Shown piece after piece: positions 2,893 to 50,168 of a DNA stretch of 64,000 bases. The stretch comes from an uncultured cyanobacterium (GTDB lineage: Bacteria > Cyanobacteriota > Cyanobacteriia > Cyanobacteriales > Cyanobacteriaceae): contig CAVQBA010000005.1 of assembly GCA_963710605.1 (NCBI GenBank), forward strand, positions 224,001 to 288,000. Direction: 5' to 3'. Below the pieces are notes generated by a model, which did no database searches, was not told where the DNA came from, and saw only the letters and a list, made by a program, of their open reading frames with translations. Each line of letters begins with the position of its first letter. Within the stretch, counting starts at the first letter, position 1. The position numbers and the translations under genes were made by a program.

Positions 2893-3159
2893 GCAGTTAT
2901 TAAATTCTTAGCTATTACTTGCATGAGAAGTAAAATCGCATGAATGTTGATAATAATTTTTAAGTTACACAAAATATGATTTAATAACAACCAACTTTAG
3001 TCTCTACATCCTAAATATATTAAAAGTTTCTAGTTTTTGCAAGTACCTTTACAGTAATAATAATAGCTCAAATCTTTGTCAATATTAGTTTTTAAACATT
3101 TTGAGAACTACAATTAAGTTAACAAACAGATGTCCTTGTAAAAATTATCAGTTAGTTGT
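2893..3159 (-). promoter_or_regulatory. Putative CRISPR leader
   Basis: AT-rich non-coding stretch between the cas5 stop and the first repeat. Confidence 0.55.
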
Positions 3160-3789
3160 TTAGATCGCTTTTACAATTGTCCAAGCTGAATCTGGAGGAA
3201 TTGTTGAAGATCTCTTTTCTAGGGAATAACGTAGCCATCGAGTATTTTGTGAGCCTAGATAGTCAACCCAGTAAGGTAAAGATAAATCGCCATACTCATT
3301 TTGAACCAAATACTTTAATGTTAAATTACGATCGATCTCAGTTATCAAATCTACAGAATTTACCAAATCTCGGCTTTCTCCACAACATAAAGCACCAAAT
3401 CGACTAATTGATGCTGGATTAGCAAATGCTTCTGTAATGCGATCGCATAAACTAGGTTTAGCTCGATCTTCTCCTTTATCCACACAAACTATTAATTCAA
3501 TACCAGTTAGTATTTCCTGAAAATCTGGTCTAGTATTTTCTTTATGGTCTAGCTTTTTCTTTTTGAACCTTCTGATGGTTCTCAGAGTAATTGATTTAGC
3601 TGGTTCGGATAGTAGTGCGATCGCAATTTTTACACCACAATGTTCGTATCTGTCTGTTTCACCCACCAAAGATAGTAACATTCCATAAATAGTTGAAGGA
3701 GGTGGTACGGGATAAGTTTGCCGATATTCACGACTGCGAGAAGTAGGAAAAGAAGCAATGGGAACATCGACTCTGAGAATAATTGTCAT
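3160..3789 (-). CDS. cas5: Cas5 (type I-B / I-MYXAN DevS-like)
   Basis: LRVDVPIASF...REYRQTYPVPPPSTIYGMLLSLVG N-terminus, RFGALCCGESRDLVN loop, position after cas7. Confidence 0.93.
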   Translation of the reverse strand: MTIILRVDVPIASFPTSRSREYRQTYPVPPPSTIYGMLLSLVGETDRYEHCGVKIAIALLSEPAKSITLRTIRRFKKKKLDHKENTRPDFQEILTGIELIVCVDKGEDRAKPSLCDRITEAFANPASISRFGALCCGESRDLVNSVDLITEIDRNLTLKYLVQNEYGDLSLPYWVDYLGSQNTRWLRYSLEKRSSTIPPDSAWTIVKAI

Positions 3790-39091: not shown

Positions 39092-39286
39092 AACAACGAT
39101 TTAAAAGGCATAAAATGACAAAAGTAGCAGTTTTCGGGATGGGGCTTATGGGGCATCCAATGGTGGTTAATTTAGCTAATAACGGTATTTCTGTGATAGC
39201 TTATAATCGATCGTCATCTAAGTTAAAATCTTTACAATCGCAAGACAATATTGCAGTCACCACAAACCCGATTGAAGCGATCGAAT
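39092..39286 (+). repeat. 195-bp direct repeat, copy 1 (5' fragment of the oxidoreductase gene)
   Basis: Matches 49270-49464 with 3 mismatches; gives the truncated ORF 39115-39315. Confidence 0.95.
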
Positions 39287-39325
39287 CATACTATTATCCA
39301 ATATATTATTTTTAATCGCACTTAC

Positions 39326-39841
39326 CTACCATCTAATATCAGAGGGAAACTCCCCGTAAAATAGAGAAACTGGTAGGTTATTTTTTTCTGATCGTTTCAG
39401 TGTTTCTAAATTGTGAAGTGCAATTCTATTAGTTGGATCTTTTTGAAGAACTCGCTCATAAAGATAAATTTGACGAGGAACATCATCATATATTAAAGCG
39501 GCTTCAAAGATCATGACTAAGGTATTATTAGGTTCTATTTGTTTTGCCCTTTCTAGTAAAGAGAAACATTCATCATCATCTCCTTGTATCCATAAAATCC
39601 AACCTAAAACAATTATAGCTTCTAAATCTCTAGGATTAAGTTCTAAAATTCTTTTTGCCATCGGAATTATTATTTCATCAGAGTCTAATGATTGATTAAA
39701 TGCTAATATGACTAATGTTTTTAATTCTCTAATATTAGTATTTTTTTGTAGTAAATTTTGGAATAAATCCATAGAAAAAGAATTTTCATTATTCGCCAAA
39801 TTAGTTACTAATTGTTTTAATGTATTCATTTTTTTATTCAT
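39326..39841 (-). CDS. TPR protein, putative immunity protein
   Basis: TPR-like helices (ILELNPRD, AKQIEPNN, VLQKDPTN); starts 3 bp after a toxin-tail remnant. Confidence 0.7.
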   Translation of the reverse strand: MNKKMNTLKQLVTNLANNENSFSMDLFQNLLQKNTNIRELKTLVILAFNQSLDSDEIIIPMAKRILELNPRDLEAIIVLGWILWIQGDDDECFSLLERAKQIEPNNTLVMIFEAALIYDDVPRQIYLYERVLQKDPTNRIALHNLETLKRSEKNNLPVSLFYGEFPSDIRW

Positions 39842-39844
39842 TTT

Positions 39845-41673
39845 TTATAGGGGATGTGAACAATGGCCTTTAGGAACAAAAGCAGTTCCAATCTCATAAT
39901 TTCCAGTAGGTGTTAGTTGATATCTAATATGTACTGGAACAAGAAGACCACTAGTACTTTGAATTTGTGTAAAAACTCTAGCGCCTTTTTCTTCCACCAC
40001 CAAATTGGCTCATTAATACGTCCCTCATAAGTATCACGACGAGTAAACCTGCCAACGCTAGGATTATAAAAACGTTGTCGCAGATAATACTCATCCAAAT
40101 TATCATCAAACTGCTCACCAGCATAACGATAACTATTCTCTACCCTATTAGTCGTATTAATCAGATTTCCATAGGCAGTATAATCATAAACATCAACCAC
40201 ACCACCAACATAATCAGTTAATACCCTGACACTACCCAAACCATCAACCAAATAGACAGTTAATTCTTCATTGCGAGACATTGAAATCAAATCATTACCA
40301 TACAAATACTCAACCGCTAACTCACCATCAACGTATTCGGATAATACCTGAGCATAAGCACGATTCTTGTCAATCAGATAATCAGTACGCACACCATCTA
40401 CAACCTGAGAAACCTTAATCCCCTCATTGTCATACTCATAACTAATAGAAATACCATTAGGGAGAATAACCTCAATCAAACGATTCTCATAATCCCAATC
40501 ATAGAGAGTTTCCTCATTACCCTCAATTACCTTAATCGTATTACCATTATCATCATACTGATAAACCTTCGTTACACCATCAATAGTCTCACTCAATAAC
40601 CAATCATTATCATTGTAAGCATAAGTAGTTGTACTTTCAACAGAATCCACCTTAGATAAACGATTACCTACCGCATCAAGAGTATATTCAATCACCCTGC
40701 CATCATTGACATCACCAGCATCAGTAATAGTTTCAGAGATAAGACGATATAAGTCATCATAAACATAATCGACAACTCGTTCATCATTCTCGGATACTCG
40801 CAGACGATGCCCAACTTTATTCAACGTATATTGATAACTAGAAATAACTTCATCAGCTAACTTATTCTCTAGGAAAGTTAGACGATTTAATCGATCGTAT
40901 TCTCTAGTCTCGACAACACCATTAGGTAAAACAGTCGCTAGTAAATTATTAACTCCGTCATACTCATAATCAGTTACGTTACCCGACTCATCAGTAACCG
41001 TATCGAGACGATTCCAAGCATCAAAAGTATAGTTAACGCTGTTATTAGGAGTCGTCACCGAAGTGCGATTACCCGCTACATCATAACTGTATTCGATCGT
41101 ATTTCCACTAGATAAATATGCACCAACAGGATCAATACGAGCAATTAATCGGTTTCTGGCATCATATTCATAAGTTGTAACACCACGCTCTTGGATAATA
41201 GACTCCATTAAACCATCGATCGTATAGGTATATTCAACCTTGGTAGTATCAGGGAAAGCCTTTTCAATTAATCGATTGCGATCGTCATAACTGTAGATAA
41301 TAGCATCACCATTAAAGTCAGTGTAACTAATCACATTACCAACTTCATCATAACCAGTAACAGATGTTTGCTTTTCGGGTAACTCCACACCTACACGACG
41401 GCTTAACTTATCGTAAGTGAAATAAGTACGATTATCATTAGCATCTTCTTGCCATATATTTCTGCCTAACTCATCATAACCATACTCAGCTCTAATTTCA
41501 GTGGGATTATTACTATCCTGATTGAGATATTGAATTACATCAGTTAGACGACCAAGATTATCATATTCATAATCGATTATCTTACCTTCTTGGTCTATAG
41601 TCGAAATTCTTCTACCTAACTCGTCATAGACAGTTTGAACAGAAGTATCATCAGCAAAAAGTGTTTCCTTGCG
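39845..41673 (-). pseudogene. Orphan Rhs/YD-repeat core fragment fused out of frame to a toxin C-terminal remnant
   Basis: YD repeats extend upstream of the ORF-track start to about 41673. After RFTRRDTYEG the DPxG motif is missing; another frame (about 40006-39845) reads ...VHIRYQLTPTGNYEIGTAFVPKGHCSHPL*. Confidence 0.85.
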
Positions 41674-42304
41674 TTAGTTTTTAGTTTCATTCACTCTAAT
41701 TACATTTTCATCAATACAACTACTAAAATTATGTAAAAAAAATTACATGAGCTCCTCTGAACTGTGAATATAATGTCCATAAAGGTGATGGTAAGTAACC
41801 GAGCGGTTTATCTAAACTTGTAAAATCGTTATCAAATTTCAGTCTTCGTTGTTGATACCAACCAACTTGTTGAAAATATATATCTTTTTGTTTAACAGAA
41901 TGTCCATGTTCATGGTTATCAATGGAGTTAAGTATTTGTGCTTGAACAGCAAAACCAAATCTTCCTTGACTATATTTTAACCAAAGCTGATCTACATCTG
42001 TTAGTTGATGACAAGGTAATTCTCCTTGTAAATATATTTGAGCTTCTCTTTGACCTAAAAAATCAAACATGAATCGTCCATAGTATCCTTCTTTTCTTAT
42101 ATAATTTAGAACTAATTGATTGTAAATAAACGCCGTTTGAGTATCAGCTTGTTGCCATTGTTTATTACTCAAATAATATTCTAGTTGAGAGTAATCAATT
42201 TTTTGTTCAAAAATATTCCAATTGAAAAATAATCTCATTAATAGAAAAGAAATACCTAGCGATAAAGATAATACAAGCCAAGTTCTTATTTTAAGTATTT
42301 TCAT
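41674..42304 (-). CDS. GUN4-like domain protein with N-terminal TM helix (+1 frameshift in A8 run at 41735-41742)
   Basis: DYSQLE..L....WQQAD, LPC..L..VDQLWLKYSQGRFGFAVQ, PLGYLPS. The corrected tail FLHNFSSCIDENVIRVNETKN matches the paralog's tail. Confidence 0.85.
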
Positions 42305-42428
42305 AAAAGTTAATTGCCAACAAATAATTTATCAATTATGGTGTAACATCAGATAATCGATTCGACAGTTGAACCTCCAGATAGAATATCTAATCGGTTT
42401 AAACGAAAAATCTAATTCAAAAAATGTT

Positions 42429-43109
42429 TTAATGTGAGTCTTGAGTCTCATTAATTCTTATTGCACTTTTATCAATGCAACTTTTAAAATTATCCAAAAA
42501 GGGAATAGGAGAAACATATTGACGTTGTATTACTATAAAAAGATTTCTAATCTCGCTGTATTCTTCTGATATAAAATAAAGCATTATCCATGAAGTTGAT
42601 GGTAAATAACCAAGTGGTCTACCTAAACTGATAGAGTAGTCATAATCGCTAAATCGATGTGGTAAAGTCTCATCCCAGCCAACTTCTTGTATAAATATAT
42701 CTGTTTTAAAACCTTCGATTCTACTATTACGGATAGAGTCCATTATTTGTGCTTGGATTGAAAAACCAAATCTCCCTTGGCTATATTTCAACCATAATTT
42801 ATCTATTGTTTTTAATTTGTGACAGGGTAATTTTCCTTTTTGGTAAATAAAAGCTTCTTTGTTAGCTAAGAAATCAAATGCTATTTTTCCTAAAAATCCT
42901 TCTTCTCTCATATAATTAGAGACTAGTTTTCTATAGATAAAAGCTGTTTCAATATCTGCTTGTTTCCATTTTTGACTACTTAGATAATTTTCAAGTTGAG
43001 AGTAATCAATTTTTTGTTCAAATATATGCCAATGAAATAACCAACGCACAAAGATACAAATAAAGCTTAATAAAATTAGCAAAAAGAACTTTTTTTTAAG
43101 TATTTTCAT
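42429..43109 (-). CDS. GUN4-like domain protein with N-terminal TM helix
   Basis: DYSQLENYL...WKQADIET, IDKLWLKYSQGRFGFSIQ, PLGYLPS. Confidence 0.88.
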   Translation of the reverse strand: MKILKKKFFLLILLSFICIFVRWLFHWHIFEQKIDYSQLENYLSSQKWKQADIETAFIYRKLVSNYMREEGFLGKIAFDFLANKEAFIYQKGKLPCHKLKTIDKLWLKYSQGRFGFSIQAQIMDSIRNSRIEGFKTDIFIQEVGWDETLPHRFSDYDYSISLGRPLGYLPSTSWIMLYFISEEYSEIRNLFIVIQRQYVSPIPFLDNFKSCIDKSAIRINETQDSH

Positions 43110-43141
43110 TAACGTTGATTTATTATACTAATAATATTTAT

Positions 43142-43406
43142 TCAAGCAATTATATCTCCTAATCTCTTTACAAAAGTAGTTTCATCACTGTGAGACTGGG
43201 AGATTAAATCCCAACCATAAACATAACTTACTGATAATTCACCATCAATGTACTCTTCTAACACCTGAGCATAAGGACGATTTTTATCCAATAGATAATT
43301 AGTCGTAACCCCATTAACCGTTTGGGATGTGCGGATATTATCCATGTCATAGGTATAATCAATCACATCTCCATCGGCAGTTTGTACCTGTATAAGTCGA
43401 TCGTCT
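43142..43406 (-). pseudogene. Short Rhs core fragment plus toxin tail remnant
   Basis: 43172-43406 is a near-copy of about 44953-45186; ends in VKRLGDIIA*. Confidence 0.85.
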
Positions 43407-43459
43407 TTATACTAAAAATAAATATTATTGAACAATCAAAACTCCAACTATTCTTTTAT

Positions 43460-43985
43460 CTAACCAGGAGAAATTAAGATAAATTGTTTTTGTTTTGCGG
43501 CTTCTTCAAAAAAATCAACGACTTGAACATATGTAGATACCACCGATTCAAATTCGTCGATTGTCCAACCACCAGGACTAGGATAAGGATAAGATTCTAG
43601 CATTATTAAATACTTCAGAGGTAAAACGAGATCTTAAACGTTTGGTGTAATTTGCTTTAGTTCTGTGTAAATTTTAACTACTTCATTAGGTTTTAAAAAA
43701 CGTACTTTACCATAATCTACCTCGTATTTTGTTTCAGTTCCTCCGAAAATAACTTTAGCCAGAAATGATTGATTATTTGTTTTATCAATGGCATATTCTT
43801 CAGTCAGAATAAAATGAATTGCTTGCCAATCTTTACCAAGATTTGAAATAATAATCTTGACTAATTAAATCCTGATAAAAATCAAACAATTTGTCTAAAT
43901 CTTGGATGTCTAGTCCAAAAGGATGTTTCTGTAATTTATTGATATTTTTTAATGTCACACGTACATACTTTACTTCTATTCCCAT
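43460..43985 (-). pseudogene. YfbM/DUF1877-like protein with several frameshifts, in the immunity position
   Basis: Pieces MGIEVKY..., GKDWQAIHFILT, DYGKVRFLKPNEV, YPSPGGW...FFEEAAK across frames. Confidence 0.75.
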
Positions 43986-44051
43986 ATTTTTATCTATAAA
44001 ACAATGTGGTTTAGTTTGCATAAATGTACTATATTATCCTAATCATGTAGG

Positions 44052-46305
44052 CTATATAAATCCTAACTTCGTAGTTGCAATACTTGTTGTAATCAAACTT
44101 ACCAACAGTACGGTATTGATTTGTGTCAATGAAGGATTTGATGCCATGTCTATAAGTCCTCTACTTCTAGCTAAAGGATTAAGAGAAGTATAGTTACTTG
44201 AAATAAGAAGAGGTCTTACTCTTTCTCGTAAATTTTCTGGGCGAATTACTCCTAGTAAAAGTATTTTATCTTTGTTATCCAATTGATTGGTATAAAAAAT
44301 AATTCCACCAACATTAAAAATGATAACTTTTCTAGGGACTTCACCAGGTGCGCCTCTTGTTATGGTTGCTTCTATTATATTTGGTGGTGTTTTCCATACG
44401 TTATCAGGAAGATAATTGCGATATGTTAAAGCATATTCTCCTAATGCAAAAGTTGCTTCTATTATTCCGTTTGGGCTGAGAGGTTTAATGTCATTAAAAG
44501 TCTTCTGTGTTTTGTTCAAAATATCTGGTTTTTTACCTAATACTAGTCTGCCAAAACTTAGGTCATCTGTTGGATGATTCTGCCCTGTATAAAGGTTGAA
44601 CAACATCTTCTACTCCATATCCAAATTCTTGAGAATATAATCCACTAGGATCAATGTAAACAACTGGGTTTGCATTACCATATAAATACTTATGTAAAGA
44701 AAAAGGACTATTAATATCACCCTCATAAGTATCCCGACGAGTAAACCTTCCTACCGATTGATTATAATAACGCTGTCTGAGGTAATACTCATCCAAATTG
44801 TTATCAAATTGCTCACCAGCAAATAAATACTGATTCTCTGCATTTCCAGTCGAATCAATTAAACTACCGAAAGCATCATAATCATAACTAGCAACAATAT
44901 ACCGATTCTCATCAGTTAAAATTCTCGTACTACCTAAACCGTCAACCTGATAAAAAGTAGTTTCATCATTACGAGACTGAGAAATTAAATCCCAACCATA
45001 GACATAACTTACCCCTAACTCACCATCAACATACTCCTCTAACACCTGAGCATAAGAACGATTTTTATCCAATAGATAATTAGTCGTAACCCCATTAACC
45101 GTTTGGGATGTGCGGATATTATCCATGTCATAGGTATAATCAATCACATCTCCATCGGCAGTTTGTACCTGTATAAGTCGATCGTCTAAATCCCAAACAT
45201 AGATAGTCTCCTGACCATTTTGCGTAACCTTAACAGTATTTCCATTCTCATCATACTGATAAACCTTAGTAATATCATCACCCGTTTCTGTCAACAACCA
45301 ATCATTCTGATTGTAAGTATAGATAGTTGTACCTTCAACAGAATCAGCTTTAGTTAAACGATTACCTACAGCATCATAAGTATAATCAATAATCTGACTA
45401 TTATTAATCTTCTCTTGAGTTAGGCGATATAAATTGTCATAATCATACTCCACAACTCGTCCATCATTTTCCTCAACTAAAATACGATTACCAATCTTAT
45501 CCAGAGTATATGTATAACTAGAAACAATGACATTATCAACAACATTCTCCAGATAAGTGAGACGATTGAGTAAATCATAATCCCTGTTTTCTGTCACACC
45601 ATTAGCAAACTCAGTTGTGACTAACTTACCAATACCGTTGTAAAAATAAGTTGTGGTATTGCTATCAATATCTGTAACAGTATCGATACGATTCAAATTA
45701 TCATAACTATATTGAGTATCACCATCAGGCGTTAAAACTCGAATACGATTACCAGCACTGTCATATTGATATTCGATCGTCTTACCACTAGGTAAGTAAA
45801 CACCGTTTGCATCAGTACGAGAAATTAATCTGTTACGCTCGTCATAACTATAAGCGGTTACACCAACGTTATCGGTAACTGTAGCAATTTGTCCTATATT
45901 GGTATAAGTGTAAGTAACTTGACTATTATCAATATAATATTCACCGATAAGACGATTGACCGACTCATAAATATATTCAGTACGATTACCTCTTTCATCA
46001 ATAGTAGCCTTAGTCTGCCCATCTTGATAATATTCAGTTAGAGTACGAGGATTATCAGCAAGATAAGAAGGATTACCATCAGGATAAACTACTTGTGTCC
46101 AATCAATTGTAACTTCTGTTTTCGTTTCATCAACAAAAGAAATAAAATCAGCAAGGGTGTCTATTTCATCAGGATAAATAGTCTCAACTAATTGCCCTTT
46201 CTCATCATAACGATATTCTGTACGTCTATTTAAAGCATCAATTACCGCAATTTGTTGATTGAAATCATTGTACTTATAACGAGTGATTAGAGATCGTATT
46301 AAGTA
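44052..46305 (-). pseudogene. Orphan Rhs core with a C-terminal PD-(D/E)xK-like nuclease toxin (+1 shift near 44578)
   Basis: Open frame 46305-44563 with YD repeats and NPVVYIDPSGL; removing one base continues into KPDIL...FNDIKP. Confidence 0.8.
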
Positions 46306-46361
46306 TCATTTTAGTCAAGTTTTTCTTGTTAGCATAAACAAGATTATCCTCACCAAGAATA

Positions 46362-47141
46362 TTAATTACATTTTTGTCTTCGTAAATATTTTTCTTGTCC
46401 ATATTTATTAAAATTATCCAATTTATATTTAAGACTATTTATTTTATCTAGATCGGATAAATAAAATATAAGAACAATATCTTTAAATTCGCTATTAATA
46501 CAAGGTAAAAAATCTTGAATACTCTCTTCAACGTCATAACCAAATGCACCTAAGGAATTTTCAGTCATCCATCTACGAGAAGGCAAAAACCCTGGTTTTG
46601 TTTGTGGTTCTATATTTTTAAAATTATTAGGGTTTTGTAAAAAATATTTTCCTTTCCAACCAAATATCTGATTTAAGTTATAATCTTCCCATGATATTCT
46701 TCTAACTAATTCATAGTAAGGTATTTGTTCTATTTTTTCTTCTGGAAAAAGAAGAATTTGTCCTCTGGGTAAAGCTATTTTAACTTGAGTGGAAAAACCA
46801 AAATATCCATCGCTATATTTAGACCATAATCGATTTATTTTTTTTAGATAATAACAGCAGATACCCTCTTTTTGCATATATCCTGAATACAGAACCCCAT
46901 TAACGAACCAATTTAATCTAGATAGACCAAAAAAAACTTCTTCCTCTACTTGTTTTCTCACAATAGTAGATATTATATTACTAGTTTCTCGATCGGCTTG
47001 AAACCAATCATGAGAGATAAGTGATTTTTCTAAACGAGAATAATCAATTATTTTTGATTGCCAATGATATAAACCTAAAGCAAAAAAACATAGGCTAAAT
47101 ATTAGAAAATAAATTAAAAATTTACGAAAATATCTACTCAT
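46362..47141 (-). CDS. GUN4-like domain protein with N-terminal TM helix
   Basis: DYSRLEKSL...WFQADRET, INRLWSKYSDGYFGFSTQ, PGFLPS. Confidence 0.85.
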   Translation of the reverse strand: MSRYFRKFLIYFLIFSLCFFALGLYHWQSKIIDYSRLEKSLISHDWFQADRETSNIISTIVRKQVEEEVFFGLSRLNWFVNGVLYSGYMQKEGICCYYLKKINRLWSKYSDGYFGFSTQVKIALPRGQILLFPEEKIEQIPYYELVRRISWEDYNLNQIFGWKGKYFLQNPNNFKNIEPQTKPGFLPSRRWMTENSLGAFGYDVEESIQDFLPCINSEFKDIVLIFYLSDLDKINSLKYKLDNFNKYGQEKYLRRQKCN

Positions 47142-47150
47142 ATTACTTTT

Positions 47151-47660
47151 TTAAATATCATTAAGTCTTTCTACTGACTTTCCACGAGAGAAAACATCTA
47201 TAATATCTAAGCCTACGCCTAATCCAGAAGGATAAAATGCTGACTTTACAGTAATATCAAATAAAGCTCCAAAACTAGGGAGTGCATCAGCAATAAAAGT
47301 CGTACAATTATGAGCTTTTTCTCTCGTCAAAAACAAATTTTCATATTTTATCCCAAAAAGATAAAGTAATGTATATGGAGTTGTTGAATAATAATGTGTT
47401 AGATTCGTTAGGTTGTTTTTTAACTGTGTTTTTTGTGCTTCATTATATTTTATGGCGTACTTATAATAGAAATAATTATTATTAACAATTTCACTCAGCA
47501 CATAATCATTTTCATTTTTTATTTCTGGAGTTACTCCTGAAAACGTATATGCTTGCCCATCAACAGCGATAAATGAATGACCTAGAAGATATTTCGGACT
47601 AAATCCAACATAAACAAATACATCATCAGTAGAAGAAGTATTTGGAGCATTTATTGCTAT
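47151..47660 (-). pseudogene. Orphan toxin domain, permuted papain-like (His...Asn-Cys)
   Basis: LGHSFIAV and HNCTTFIADAL; no convincing start of its own, fused out of frame to an Ig-like fragment. Confidence 0.65.
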
Positions 47661-48292
47661 TACCACGGAATATTTCCACAAACTCGTCACTATCGGCGGT
47701 GGCAATTTCTAGGCTATAGTAATTCAAATTGTCATCGTCAATCGTACCAATAATGTCGGTGGGAGCGGTAATTGTGTTGTTTTCTATACCTGTCAAATCG
47801 AGGGAGACAACAGGGGCAGTAACATCACTACCATCAAAAACTTCAACAGTAATTATATATTCACCGACGTTTCCTGCCTCATCATAACCGTATGCTGTGA
47901 GTTGATATGTACCTAACTCATCAAAGGTAATATTACCGATTCCATAACGATCGAGTTGTATAGCTTGATTATTAACTATTTCAATCTGATTACCTGTGGT
48001 GATATCATCTTCTAGGTTATTAGCAAATAGTTGTAAACCTGTTACACCAACGTTATCAGTGGCTGTTACTTGGAAGGGTATTGTTGAGTTCAGTTCAGCT
48101 TGATATTCTCCATTGACCACAAAAATACTACCAGGTAATAAGTTGACAACAGGAGCGATGTTGTCGGCGGTAACATCAAGAGAAAAGGTTTGTTCGACTT
48201 CTGCTCCTACTTCATCGCTAACTGTAATGGTGATGGTATGATTACCAATATTATCGATCGTCGGTGTCCAACGTAAACGTCCGAAATTGTCA
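47626..48292 (-). pseudogene. Fragment of Ig-like stalk domains of a giant Rhs protein
   Basis: GRLRWTPT, VTATDNVGV, YDEAGNVG, DVTAPVVSL, IIGTIDDDNL; no native start, truncated. Confidence 0.7.
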
Positions 48293-48359
48293 GAATATAT
48301 TTAGCTGTATTTTGCTATAATTACTAAGATCAAAAATCAGAAAAAGAGTTTTATTTTCA

Positions 48360-49256
48360 ATGAGTCAATTTCCTCATGATGACTTTGTTAAAGAATATTT
48401 ACCCGAATTAATATCTAATTATGGGCTCGTAAATTCGGGAAAGAAAATAGCTTCTCAGACGAAAGAAATAGATGTCTTTTTTCAACCTGATAACAAAGTA
48501 AATAATAATTCAAATCAATTAGGTTTACTGGCAAGGTTATTGAGAACAACTTGTTTATTTGAGGTGTATCGAAATTCAGTTACAGTTAATCAAATTAACG
48601 AGTGTATCGGGAAGTTAGTTGACTTGACGACATTATTAGGTAGAGAAAGTAAAAAGAGCAAAAATCAGATTGAAGCAGTAAATTTATGGATTTTAACACC
48701 AACTTTATCACAAAAAATATTAAACTCTTTTGAAGCAAGAACACAAGAGGATTGGGAAGAGGGAATTTATTTTTTACCTTCAGCTTTATCAACGGGAATA
48801 ATAGTTGTACATCAACTGCCAGTAAATAAAGATACTCTGTGGCTAAGAATGTTAGGAAAGGGTAAAGTACAAGAGTTAGCCATCGAAGAATTAAATGCAC
48901 TTCCAAAGGATAATCAATACAGAGACAGTGTTTTAGAGTTGGTCAGTAATTTATTTACAATGCTACAATTAAACCAACAAAAAAAGCAAGAGTTAACCTC
49001 AGAAGATAGACAATTAGTTATGAAATTATCACCTATTTATACTGCTCGATTAAATGAAGTCAGACAACAAGAAGCAACTTTACTAATTGTTCGTCAATTG
49101 AAAAGAAAGATAGGTGAGTTATCTCCTAATTTAGAAGCAAGAGTAATAAGTTTACAAATCGACATTTTAGAAAATTTAGGAGAAGCCTTATTAGATTTTA
49201 ACTCGATCGATCACCTGATTAATTGGTTAAATGAAAACGACAAAGGATTAAAATAA
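48360..49256 (+). CDS. Rpn-like PD-(D/E)xK protein with C-terminal DUF4351-like domain
   Basis: PHDDFVKEY, EIDVFF, LFEVYR, TLWLRMLG; tail LIVRQLKRKIG...LENLGEALLDF...NWL. Confidence 0.78.
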   Translation: MSQFPHDDFVKEYLPELISNYGLVNSGKKIASQTKEIDVFFQPDNKVNNNSNQLGLLARLLRTTCLFEVYRNSVTVNQINECIGKLVDLTTLLGRESKKSKNQIEAVNLWILTPTLSQKILNSFEARTQEDWEEGIYFLPSALSTGIIVVHQLPVNKDTLWLRMLGKGKVQELAIEELNALPKDNQYRDSVLELVSNLFTMLQLNQQKKQELTSEDRQLVMKLSPIYTARLNEVRQQEATLLIVRQLKRKIGELSPNLEARVISLQIDILENLGEALLDFNSIDHLINWLNENDKGLK

Positions 49257-49269
49257 AAAAGATCTGCTG

Positions 49270-49464
49270 AACAACGATTTAAAAGGCATAAAATGACAAA
49301 AGTAGCAGTTTTCGGGATGGGACTTATGGGGCATCCAATGGTGATTAATTTAGCTAATAACGGTATTTCTGTGATAGCTTATAATCGATCGTCATCTAAG
49401 TTAGAATCTTTACAATCGCAAGACAATATTGCAGTCACCACAAACCCGATTGAAGCGATCGAAT
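49270..49464 (+). repeat. 195-bp direct repeat, copy 2
   Basis: Matches 39092-39286. Confidence 0.95.
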
Positions 49465-50168
49465 TTGCTGATTGTCTAATTTTGATGCTTAGTGATTATC
49501 AGGCGATTAAACAAGTTATTTTCGCTGATACGGCTGATTTAACCGCCAAAACAGTGATCCAAATGGGTACAATCGCCCCCGATGAAAGTAAAGCATTATT
49601 AGAGCAAATCCAAGCTAAAGACGGAGAATATTTAGAAGCACCCGTTTTAGGAAGCATTCCTCAAGTCAAAAGCGGTGAATTACTAATCATGGTGGGGGCA
49701 ACAGAAAATCAATTTCAGCAATGGCAAAAATTACTAACTCACTTTAGCCCTAAACCTCTGCTTGTTGGTGAAGTAGGTAAAGCCTCAGCTTTAAAACTTG
49801 CTCTCAATCAAATGATTGCTGGTTTGACAAGTACTTTTGCCTTAAGTTTGAGTTTTGTGCAACAACAAGGAGTAGAAGTCGATACCTTTATGGAAATTCT
49901 GCGTGATAGTGCTTTATATGCTCCGACATTTGACAAAAAATTATCCCGAATGTGCGATCGTAATTTTAGTAATCCTAATTTTCCTAGCAAGCATTTATTA
50001 AAAGATATTAATTTATTCTTGACATCTGCTCAAACTAAAGGTTTAAATACAAAAGGTTTAGAAGGAATAGAAACGATCGTTGCTCAAACTACAAAAAACG
50101 ATCTAGCTGATAGTGATTACTCTGCTTTAATTGAAATGATTAGAAGTCAAACAATTGACAACGTCTAA
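49293..50168 (+). CDS. NAD(P)-dependent beta-hydroxyacid dehydrogenase family oxidoreductase
   Basis: GMGLMG, YNRS, EAPVLGS, LKLALNQ. Confidence 0.92.
   Translation: MTKVAVFGMGLMGHPMVINLANNGISVIAYNRSSSKLESLQSQDNIAVTTNPIEAIEFADCLILMLSDYQAIKQVIFADTADLTAKTVIQMGTIAPDESKALLEQIQAKDGEYLEAPVLGSIPQVKSGELLIMVGATENQFQQWQKLLTHFSPKPLLVGEVGKASALKLALNQMIAGLTSTFALSLSFVQQQGVEVDTFMEILRDSALYAPTFDKKLSRMCDRNFSNPNFPSKHLLKDINLFLTSAQTKGLNTKGLEGIETIVAQTTKNDLADSDYSALIEMIRSQTIDNV

Follow-up and report, generated by a model that had tools for sequence, protein, structure and literature searches.

Membrane-anchored GUN4 proteins as candidate immunity proteins of a permuted papain-like Rhs toxin family in cyanobacteria

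What is a GUN4 domain, known as a cofactor of Mg-chelatase, doing three times over directly behind the 3′ end of a toxin gene? The question is raised by a 64,000-nucleotide (nt) stretch of the genome of an uncultured cyanobacterium of the family Cyanobacteriaceae (assembly GCA_963710605.1, contig CAVQBA010000005.1, positions 224,001 to 288,000; the whole stretch is called the window here). At about 39.3–48.3 kb its minus strand is a pile of Rhs gene pieces, among which stand three genes encoding a GUN4 domain behind a putative N-terminal transmembrane (TM) segment, referred to below as TM-GUN4 #1, #2, and #3. Gene order, fold, and predicted topology lead us to consider it likely that the TM-GUN4 proteins are the cognate and orphan immunity proteins, situated outside the cytoplasm, of a family of Rhs toxins. 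On the same reading, the region as a whole is probably an orphan array, now decayed, that belonged to a cyanobacterial Rhs polymorphic-toxin system.

Toxin remnants in front of the GUN4 genes

The toxin domain occurs once in the organism's own genome (G000). It occupies 47151..47642 on the minus strand (163 residues) and is predicted to be permuted papain/NlpC-P60-like, with His22 and Cys113 as its dyad; the open reading frame (ORF) reported by the gene caller, P0011, is slightly longer (47151..47666, 171 residues, minus strand) and starts with a GTG at 47666. The ORF ends with ...IDVFSRGKSVERLNDI, and its stop codon (47151-47153) lies 9 nt before the ATG (47141) of TM-GUN4 #1 (46362..47141, minus strand, 259 residues; Pfam GUN4, PF05419, E 3e-16), taken here as the candidate for cognate immunity to the intact toxin.

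The two further GUN4 genes are preceded by the last codons of the same kind of toxin gene. In module 2, a fragment of Rhs core, R2 (43142..43411, minus strand, an 89-residue frame), is joined directly to the last 9 toxin codons; the 74-residue ORF 43142-43366 ends with ...ETTFVKRLGDIIA, of which the tail VKRLGDIIA and its stop codon occupy 43142-43171, and it stops 32 nt before the ATG (43109) of TM-GUN4 #2 (42429..43109, minus strand, 226 residues; PF05419 E 1.4e-23), an orphan immunity candidate with an intact ORF. The Rhs-core homology of this module (R2 is 92% identical to 44953-45205) ends exactly where the toxin tail starts. In module 3, a scar of about 18 codons (42336..42393, minus strand) reads LDILSGGSTV and then, when one base is skipped to allow for a 1-nt frameshift, NRLSDVTP and a stop codon, 31 nt before the ATG (42304) of TM-GUN4 #3 (41729..42304, minus strand, 191 residues; PF05419 E 2.4e-20), also an orphan immunity candidate. 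The likeness of the three tails is more than fortuitous, because all of them fit the conserved C terminus, G..V[KN]RL..[IV], of the toxin family (alignment A4) and because they align at the DNA level with the intact module 1 and with a corresponding module in another genome (G439, described below).

The first-pass annotation of this DNA had proposed that three TM-GUN4 paralogs each follow a similar toxin C-terminal peptide, the third after a one-base correction, and its coordinates and the correction are all borne out, as is the GUN4 identity, by Pfam matches; as to the paralogs themselves, #1 and #2 are intact, but #3 is truncated at its C terminus. The pattern is that of orphan modules: only 9 and about 18 codons are left of two toxins whose GUN4 ORFs survive. 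Retention of the GUN4 gene after loss of the toxin, as in modules 2 and 3, is the usual signature of immunity genes.

The toxin family and its neighbors in other genomes

For the toxin domain, no Pfam or NCBIfam match reaches threshold, and the profile of the domain gives 0 matches at E ≤ 10 against the sequences in the PDB. Its relatives are few: 17 matches at E ≤ 0.001 among 1,835,955,588 representative proteins and, from a search of 5.8 billion proteins, one longer relative, P0001, an RHS protein whose C terminus is 67% identical to the toxin. Among 14 relatives that were retrieved, 9 carry a DPxG motif or an RHS core before the domain, as befits the first-pass proposal of an Rhs C-terminal toxin family, and another 4 comprise short fragments and the window's own protein; one, P0025, is a false match due to low complexity. 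RHS_repeat is found in P0001, P0013, P0018, P0020, and P0021, and in G439 and a second genome, G991 (loci L035 and L038), the toxin is preceded by TIGR03696, the Rhs-associated core. DPxG(L) is the self-cleavage site of Rhs proteins. In all 12 relatives with DPxG (two of them near-identical), a hydrophobic stretch lies within the 50–64 residues between this motif and the GH motif of the toxin; it is 25–30 residues long in most relatives, with a Kyte-Doolittle value of 1.44–2.14 for the best 19-residue window. Three distant relatives are without the stretch.

In the 13-sequence alignment A4, His22, which belongs to the GH motif, is conserved in 12 of the 12 rows that cover it, and Cys113, the cysteine of NCTT, in 13 of 13. 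The AlphaFold model of the toxin (predicted local distance difference test (pLDDT) 84.6, predicted template modeling score (pTM) 0.82) places His22 in a strand (residues 18–27) and Cys113 in a helix (107–120). In a comparison of this model with known structures by VIA-align, seven of the top eight matches (ranks 1–4 and 6–8) are of the permuted papain type: YiiX (2if6) and TseH (6v98), both with Z 9.8; a Bacillus cysteine peptidase (3kw0, Z 9.4); MARTX RID (5xn7, Z 7.2); PLAAT4 (7zot, Z 5.3); a PPPDE deSUMOylase (Z 5.2); and Aichivirus 2A (Z 5.0). Rank 5 is a respiratory-supercomplex chain (Z 5.7), and the rest have Z values of 3.9 or less. Foldseek found nothing in the PDB at E ≤ 0.001, with H-REV107 at rank 8 (probability 0.35), and the ESM Atlas gave LRAT, IcsB_M, TseH, and Lnb_N as leads. 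At the sequence level the family stays outside the curated families: among its 13 members, Lnb_N (PF13387) is matched by 3 (best E 3.6e-4), LRAT (PF04970) by 3 (best E 1e-3), and Peptidase_C97 by 1, all below the gathering score, and TseH (PF25218) is matched by none.

The model thus supports, as a fold, the permuted papain/NlpC dyad that the first-pass annotation had surmised from GHS...NCTT: the fold is circularly permuted and papain/NlpC-P60-like, with the histidine before the cysteine. The domain stands outside every curated family. Judged from this model, the toxin is probably a cysteine hydrolase or acyltransferase of about 165 residues that employs His22 and Cys113, with Asp28 as the probable third residue.

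With profile A4 we searched 401 genomes from the order and 401 from the class; four genomes besides the window's own gave matches (G439, G991, G515, and G902), and in two of these TM-GUN4 is the next gene. G439, which belongs to another family, encodes an RHS protein ending in a toxin domain 40% identical to that of the window and, 52 nt past it, a 271-residue protein that combines an N-terminal membrane segment with a GUN4 domain (E 2.5e-14) and is 36% identical to TM-GUN4 #1. G991, which belongs to another order, has a truncated Rhs piece whose toxin is more distant (E 2.6e-9), and the start of a gene for a 190-residue TM-GUN4 (PF05419 E 1.6e-24) overlaps the toxin gene by 4 nt, within another orphan array. 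The neighborhood association envisaged by the first-pass annotation is accordingly found beyond the window, the order Rhs core, toxin, TM-GUN4 recurring in G439 and G991, both of other families.

Other searches added little. Two scans of metagenome contigs, and scans of genome contigs with two sub-alignments of the toxin, yielded no confirmed relative; a two-sequence toxin profile run on a sample of the phylum detected the organism's own genome and one weak match only (G211, E 0.0047). The family of G439, comprising four genomes only, gave no further toxin match, and a plasmid collection gave none either, its GUN4 matches being limited to three generic GUN4-domain proteins.

These neighborhoods bear on the view that the TM-GUN4 proteins have a function unrelated to the toxin, such as that of a membrane-bound tetrapyrrole sensor or carrier, and are mere co-travelers in the island. 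Since GUN4 domains are very common in cyanobacteria (matches in 178 of the 401 genomes of the phylum sample, often about seven per matching genome) and one TM-GUN4 gene, in genome G519, stands alone beside housekeeping genes, some coincidental proximity is conceivable, but it would have to explain why TM-GUN4 follows directly on the toxin stop codon, from a gap of 52 nt to an overlap of 4 nt, in three genomes of three families, and why scars of the toxin tail occupy the same place before two further GUN4 copies. Moreover, the best-scoring short GUN4 proteins elsewhere (L005, L011, and L022) proved to be of another kind, with a coiled-coil or plain N terminus, no membrane helix, and no Rhs neighbor. 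We regard an unrelated function as improbable.

The membrane-anchored GUN4 proteins and their proposed role

The assignment of the GUN4 domain is well above the PF05419 gathering cut-off of 29.2 bits for TM-GUN4 #1 (60.3 bits), #2 (84.1), and #3 (73.5) and likewise for the proteins of G439 (54) and G991 (87.1) and a metagenomic protein, P0010 (66.7). When a profile of the group was searched against solved structures, GUN4 entries were matched (7e2r, E 1.6e-19; 1z3x, 4ykb, and 1y6i as well). Each of the TM-GUN4 proteins of the window has one N-terminal hydrophobic 19-mer (Kyte-Doolittle 1.97–2.31) behind a K/R-rich flank free of acidic residues, and the same arrangement, a single hydrophobic N-terminal segment with a basic, acid-free N-flank, is present in 6 of 6 TM-GUN4 proteins; in the AlphaFold2 (AF2) model of #1, residues 3–28 form an N-terminal helix. 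The N-terminal helical bundle of the soluble, cytoplasmic GUN4 was not found in these proteins, which have the single hydrophobic helix and its basic flank instead. From their sequences an N-in/C-out topology with an extracytoplasmic GUN4 domain is predicted, in agreement with the membrane anchoring that had been claimed for them.

TM-GUN4 #2 and #3 are 51% identical, with a ratio of nonsynonymous to synonymous substitution rates (dN/dS) of 0.285 at a dS of 1.15, which is near saturation; identities among the immunity candidates range from 23 to 56%. The #1 type has a large insertion after the GxLPS motif. A remnant of the missing tail of #3, NFSSCIDENVIRVNETKN, homologous to the tail of #2, lies out of frame past the stop codon (41676-41728). 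Of the 40 GUN4 domains placed in a tree, those of the three window genes, G439, G991, and P0010 are set apart by a branch with support 96/84 from the 34 others, among them the canonical GUN4 of the window's genome; because the branches are long, this toxin-linked grouping should be taken with some care. A search of 381 genomes of the order with the group profile gave full-length matches only in G000, G439, and G519. Two other proteins with a membrane helix and a GUN4 domain, P0004 and P0007, were placed outside the toxin-linked branch in the tree and were not assigned to it.

The GUN4 fold itself suggests another way in which these proteins could protect. A TM-GUN4 might hold, in the "greasy palm" of its GUN4 domain, a small hydrophobic molecule (a tetrapyrrole, a bilin, or a lipid-linked substrate or product of the toxin) and not the toxin itself, so that protection would amount to shielding of the target or mopping up of the product. 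GUN4 is a ligand-binding fold whose known job is the holding of porphyrin, and Arg214 of SynGUN4 is needed for porphyrin binding (PMC1084334). A basic residue may persist at the equivalent position, which is R in #2 and #3 and K in #1 in a MAFFT alignment, its retention depending on the placement of an insertion of 7–35 residues. The fold relatives of the toxin also include lipid acyltransferases, PLAAT4 and RID, alongside the weak LRAT and Lnb_N matches. The canonical GUN4 of the window's genome carries the LxNxLR motif as LSNQLR, but the Asn of this motif, reported in PMC10156173 to be essential for bilin binding and to be missing, with the rest of the motif, from paralogs, is absent in 6 of 6 TM-GUN4 proteins, and their fast, module-specific divergence fits protein-protein specificity better than a shared ligand. 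It is therefore doubtful, in our estimate, that an exported GUN4 clade serves as antidote through its ligand pocket by holding a tetrapyrrole, a bilin, or a lipid-linked envelope intermediate that the toxin attacks or produces. If it did, immunity would be achieved by shielding of a substrate and not by plugging of an enzyme, and the Rhs toxin would have a cyanobacteria-specific target in the envelope or the thylakoid lumen.

In the mechanism we favor, the toxin, which in intact relatives follows the Rhs core, would be released at DPxG(L). Once delivered, it would attack an extracytoplasmic target, either the cell wall or the cytoplasmic membrane from its outer side, in the manner of TseH, a relative by fold. 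The next gene would supply a one-helix N-in/C-out protein whose GUN4 domain binds and blocks the cognate toxin. The architecture, the fold, the attachment of the toxin family to Rhs proteins, the repeated occurrence of the gene pair, and the grouping of the linked GUN4 domains in one clade are observed, whereas toxicity, the site of action, topology, and direct binding between toxin and GUN4 are what we infer here; for the extracytoplasmic target, the grounds are that TseH is the nearest fold relative with a known phenotype and that both types of immunity protein encountered next to the toxin family (the second is described below) are predicted to be exported or anchored.

A TM-GUN4 could in principle be a helper of the toxin (a stabilizing chaperone, an export adaptor, or an activator) and not its antidote. 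Adaptor and chaperone genes do occur beside genes for Rhs and type VI secretion system (T6SS) effectors, and the hydrophobic stretch of the toxin might need shielding; the toxin of G991, however, has no such stretch and still has its GUN4 partner. A helper would also have no reason to outlast its toxin, but in modules 2 and 3 the GUN4 gene is still present although the toxin has shrunk to 9 and about 18 codons. A helper would, moreover, face the periplasm, whereas Rhs toxins are loaded in the cytoplasm. A helper role thus appears very improbable.

Several observations weigh against an immunity role. Independent co-occurrences of the toxin and TM-GUN4 outside the window number two only, and the external sample is small. 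The sister toxins of G515 and G902 precede unrelated proteins of 115 and 113 residues with a hydrophobic N terminus, so that GUN4 does not serve as the immunity fold throughout the toxin superfamily. G519, a 100% complete genome, has a 252-residue TM-GUN4 of the toxin-linked type (L044:1462-2220, plus strand) that lacks an Rhs neighbor, and the genome nowhere encodes a toxin of the family. The intact toxin of the window is no longer carried by an Rhs protein: the domain is fused out of frame to an Ig-like fragment, with no Rhs core. TM-GUN4 #3 is without its C-terminal end. The topology call is based only on hydropathy and charge counts, and the AF2 model of #1 is poor (pLDDT 59.3), which leaves its C-terminal half structurally undefined.

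The lone TM-GUN4 gene of G519 lies between a moeA-like gene and a 203-residue ORF on the opposite strand. It could equally well be an orphan immunity gene or have an independent function. The 115- and 113-residue proteins of G515 (L036:803-1150, minus strand) and G902 (L037:2177-2518, plus strand) are homologous to each other, match no Pfam family, and in one case have an LNSC lipobox-like motif; they are candidates for a second, unrelated immunity family. The pairing of the toxin family with two unrelated types of candidate immunity protein, both predicted to be exported, points to an extracytoplasmic target. The decay of the array and the existence of a sister toxin clade with a different immunity candidate had gone unnoticed in the earlier annotation.

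The decay also bears on present activity, as distinct from evolutionary origin. It is possible, if somewhat unlikely, that the whole of the window's array is a dead relic in which the toxin and the three GUN4 proteins are today neither expressed nor functional: all three Rhs pieces are 5′-truncated, the toxin is out of frame with the fragment upstream of it, and a second toxin type and TM-GUN4 #3 are frameshifted or truncated. Frames free of stop codons nevertheless persist in the toxin (163 codons), #1 (259 codons), and #2 (226 codons), the dN/dS ratio of #2 and #3 given above also counts against a relic, though with its dS near saturation, and orphan immunity genes are reported to be commonly kept in use (PMC5361080). 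The toxin of module 1 being without a carrier and modules 2 and 3 having an immunity gene with a few toxin codons, the GUN4 proteins would therefore now serve mostly, if they have any role, as stockpiled immunity against the toxins of neighbors.

Architecture of the island and comparison with known systems

The remaining parts of the island are as follows, all on the minus strand unless stated otherwise. Upstream of the toxin, the Ig-like fragment (47629..48300) is a 224-residue open frame, 5′-truncated, from the N-terminal part of an Rhs protein; it has 41% identity to the N-terminal region of the genome's 3227-residue Rhs ORF (contig C6) and weak NCBIfam matches to beta-barrel and tandem-repeat models. 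Rhs fragment R1 (44052..46305), 5′-truncated, has a 580-residue frame with a DPSGL motif (RHS_repeat E 3.7e-12) and stands outside the GUN4 pairing. Its C-terminal domain is a different one in another frame: this second domain (44052-44606, 184 residues) is one frame off the Rhs fragment proper (44566-46305) and has no match in Pfam or NCBIfam. The small broken ORFs at 43463-44033 that come after it may be the decayed immunity gene of that domain. Rhs fragment R3 (39913..41673), 5′-truncated with a 586-residue frame that ends before DPxGL, has an RHS_repeat match of E 2.8e-39. At the end of the array, a TPR protein (39326..39841) has TPR family matches below the curated cut-offs except for TPR_14 (27.2 bits versus 23.5); its position makes it a possible immunity gene for a toxin that has since disappeared.

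The island's upstream edge carries a gene for a DUF4351 protein (48360..49256, plus strand; PF14261 E 5e-21). DUF4351 genes flank the Rhs orphan arrays of G902 (L037:287-1219 and 2991-3419) and G991 (L041:7551-8489) as well, and in G196 one of them (L022:319-1164) adjoins a short GUN4 gene; some also have DUF2887 or YhgA-like/PD-(D/E)XK "transposase" domains. They may take part in the rearrangement of the arrays. The whole island of about 10 kb is bracketed by 195-bp direct repeats, the left copy (39092..39286, plus strand) being 98% identical to the right copy (49270-49464). Because both copies duplicate the 5′ end of a dehydrogenase gene (49293-50168), they suggest that the island was inserted by recombination at that 5′ end; the repeated stretch is promoter-proximal, and the left copy forms a 66-residue stub (39115-39315). 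Elsewhere in the same genome, the full-length 3227-residue Rhs ORF lies at about 863000–868000 of contig C6, and a further cluster of Rhs ORFs (398–1403 residues) lies at about 229000–238700 of contig C1.

Comparison with the Rhs toxin/immunity systems with orphan modules described by Zhang et al. (2012; PMC3482391) reveals several shared features: RHS/YD repeats, the Rhs-associated core with DPxGL, a toxin at the C terminus that varies, a small gene immediately after it, and arrays in which 5′-truncated rhs pieces are interspersed with immunity genes left behind. In the present family, the repeats and TIGR03696 with DPxGL precede the toxin in relatives, only Rhs fragments adjoining it in the window, and the small downstream gene co-varies with the toxin (40% identity between the toxins and 36% between the GUN4 proteins of the window and G439) and occurs in orphan modules. 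The difference is that the immunity candidate is a GUN4 domain, a term absent from the text of the 2012 polymorphic-toxin catalogue, supplements aside. The papain-like toxins listed in that catalogue all have Cys before His, and the words "permuted" and "LRAT" do not occur in the 300,000 of its 357,715 characters that were covered.

For the toxin itself, a close counterpart is TseH of the TseH-TsiH pair of the Vibrio cholerae T6SS (PDB 6v98; PMC4453574), to which its model can be matched with Z 9.8 and a root mean square deviation of 3.6 over 133 residues. The sequence identity is only 11%, however, and delivery would be by an Rhs protein, whereas TseH is a free T6SS cargo. The order of His and Cys, and the fold, are shared with YiiX and other permuted papain-like hydrolases, with LRAT and PLAAT, and with the RID and IcsB acyltransferases, but the toxin members are below every Pfam cut-off, and their hydrophobic stretch precedes the domain, whereas the anchor of PLAAT is C-terminal. 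The family is thus defined as a rare one among Rhs toxins, with a papain fold in the His-then-Cys order and no curated Pfam or NCBIfam model.

With the GUN4 cofactor of Mg-chelatase and its paralogs (PMC1084334 and PMC10156173), the TM-GUN4 proteins have in common a recognizable GUN4 core and, as in other paralogs, the absence of the Asn of LxNxLR. They differ from canonical GUN4 in the membrane helix that takes the place of the helical bundle, the predicted extracytoplasmic site, and, in the #1 type, the insertion after GxLPS; canonical GUN4 is linked to pigment metabolism, whereas the TM-GUN4 genes are linked to a toxin gene, and the words "transmembrane" and "toxin" are absent from the text of PMC10156173. 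GUN4 domains have been placed in cyanobacterial conflict systems before (Kaur et al. 2020, 2021; PMC7159879, PMC8195603), and the context of biological conflict and the restriction to cyanobacteria are the same; in the passages considered, however, GUN4 is read as an intracellular tetrapyrrole sensor fused to kinases, caspases, TIR, and similar domains, whereas here it is stand-alone, membrane-anchored, and next to a secreted toxin. Full-text searches of the literature, within the text that they returned, gave no immunity role for GUN4 with Rhs or polymorphic toxins.

Cyanobacterial GUN4 paralogs are many, and one clade would by this account gain a concrete job, that of an exported, membrane-tethered antidote to a contact-dependent toxin. 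Little is known of the mutual combat of cyanobacteria, for the study of which an expressible toxin/antidote pair would offer an entry point. Measured against the systems described above, a system of this kind is familiar, and the novelty lies in the antidote's fold, in where the antidote is predicted to reside, and in the family of toxins.

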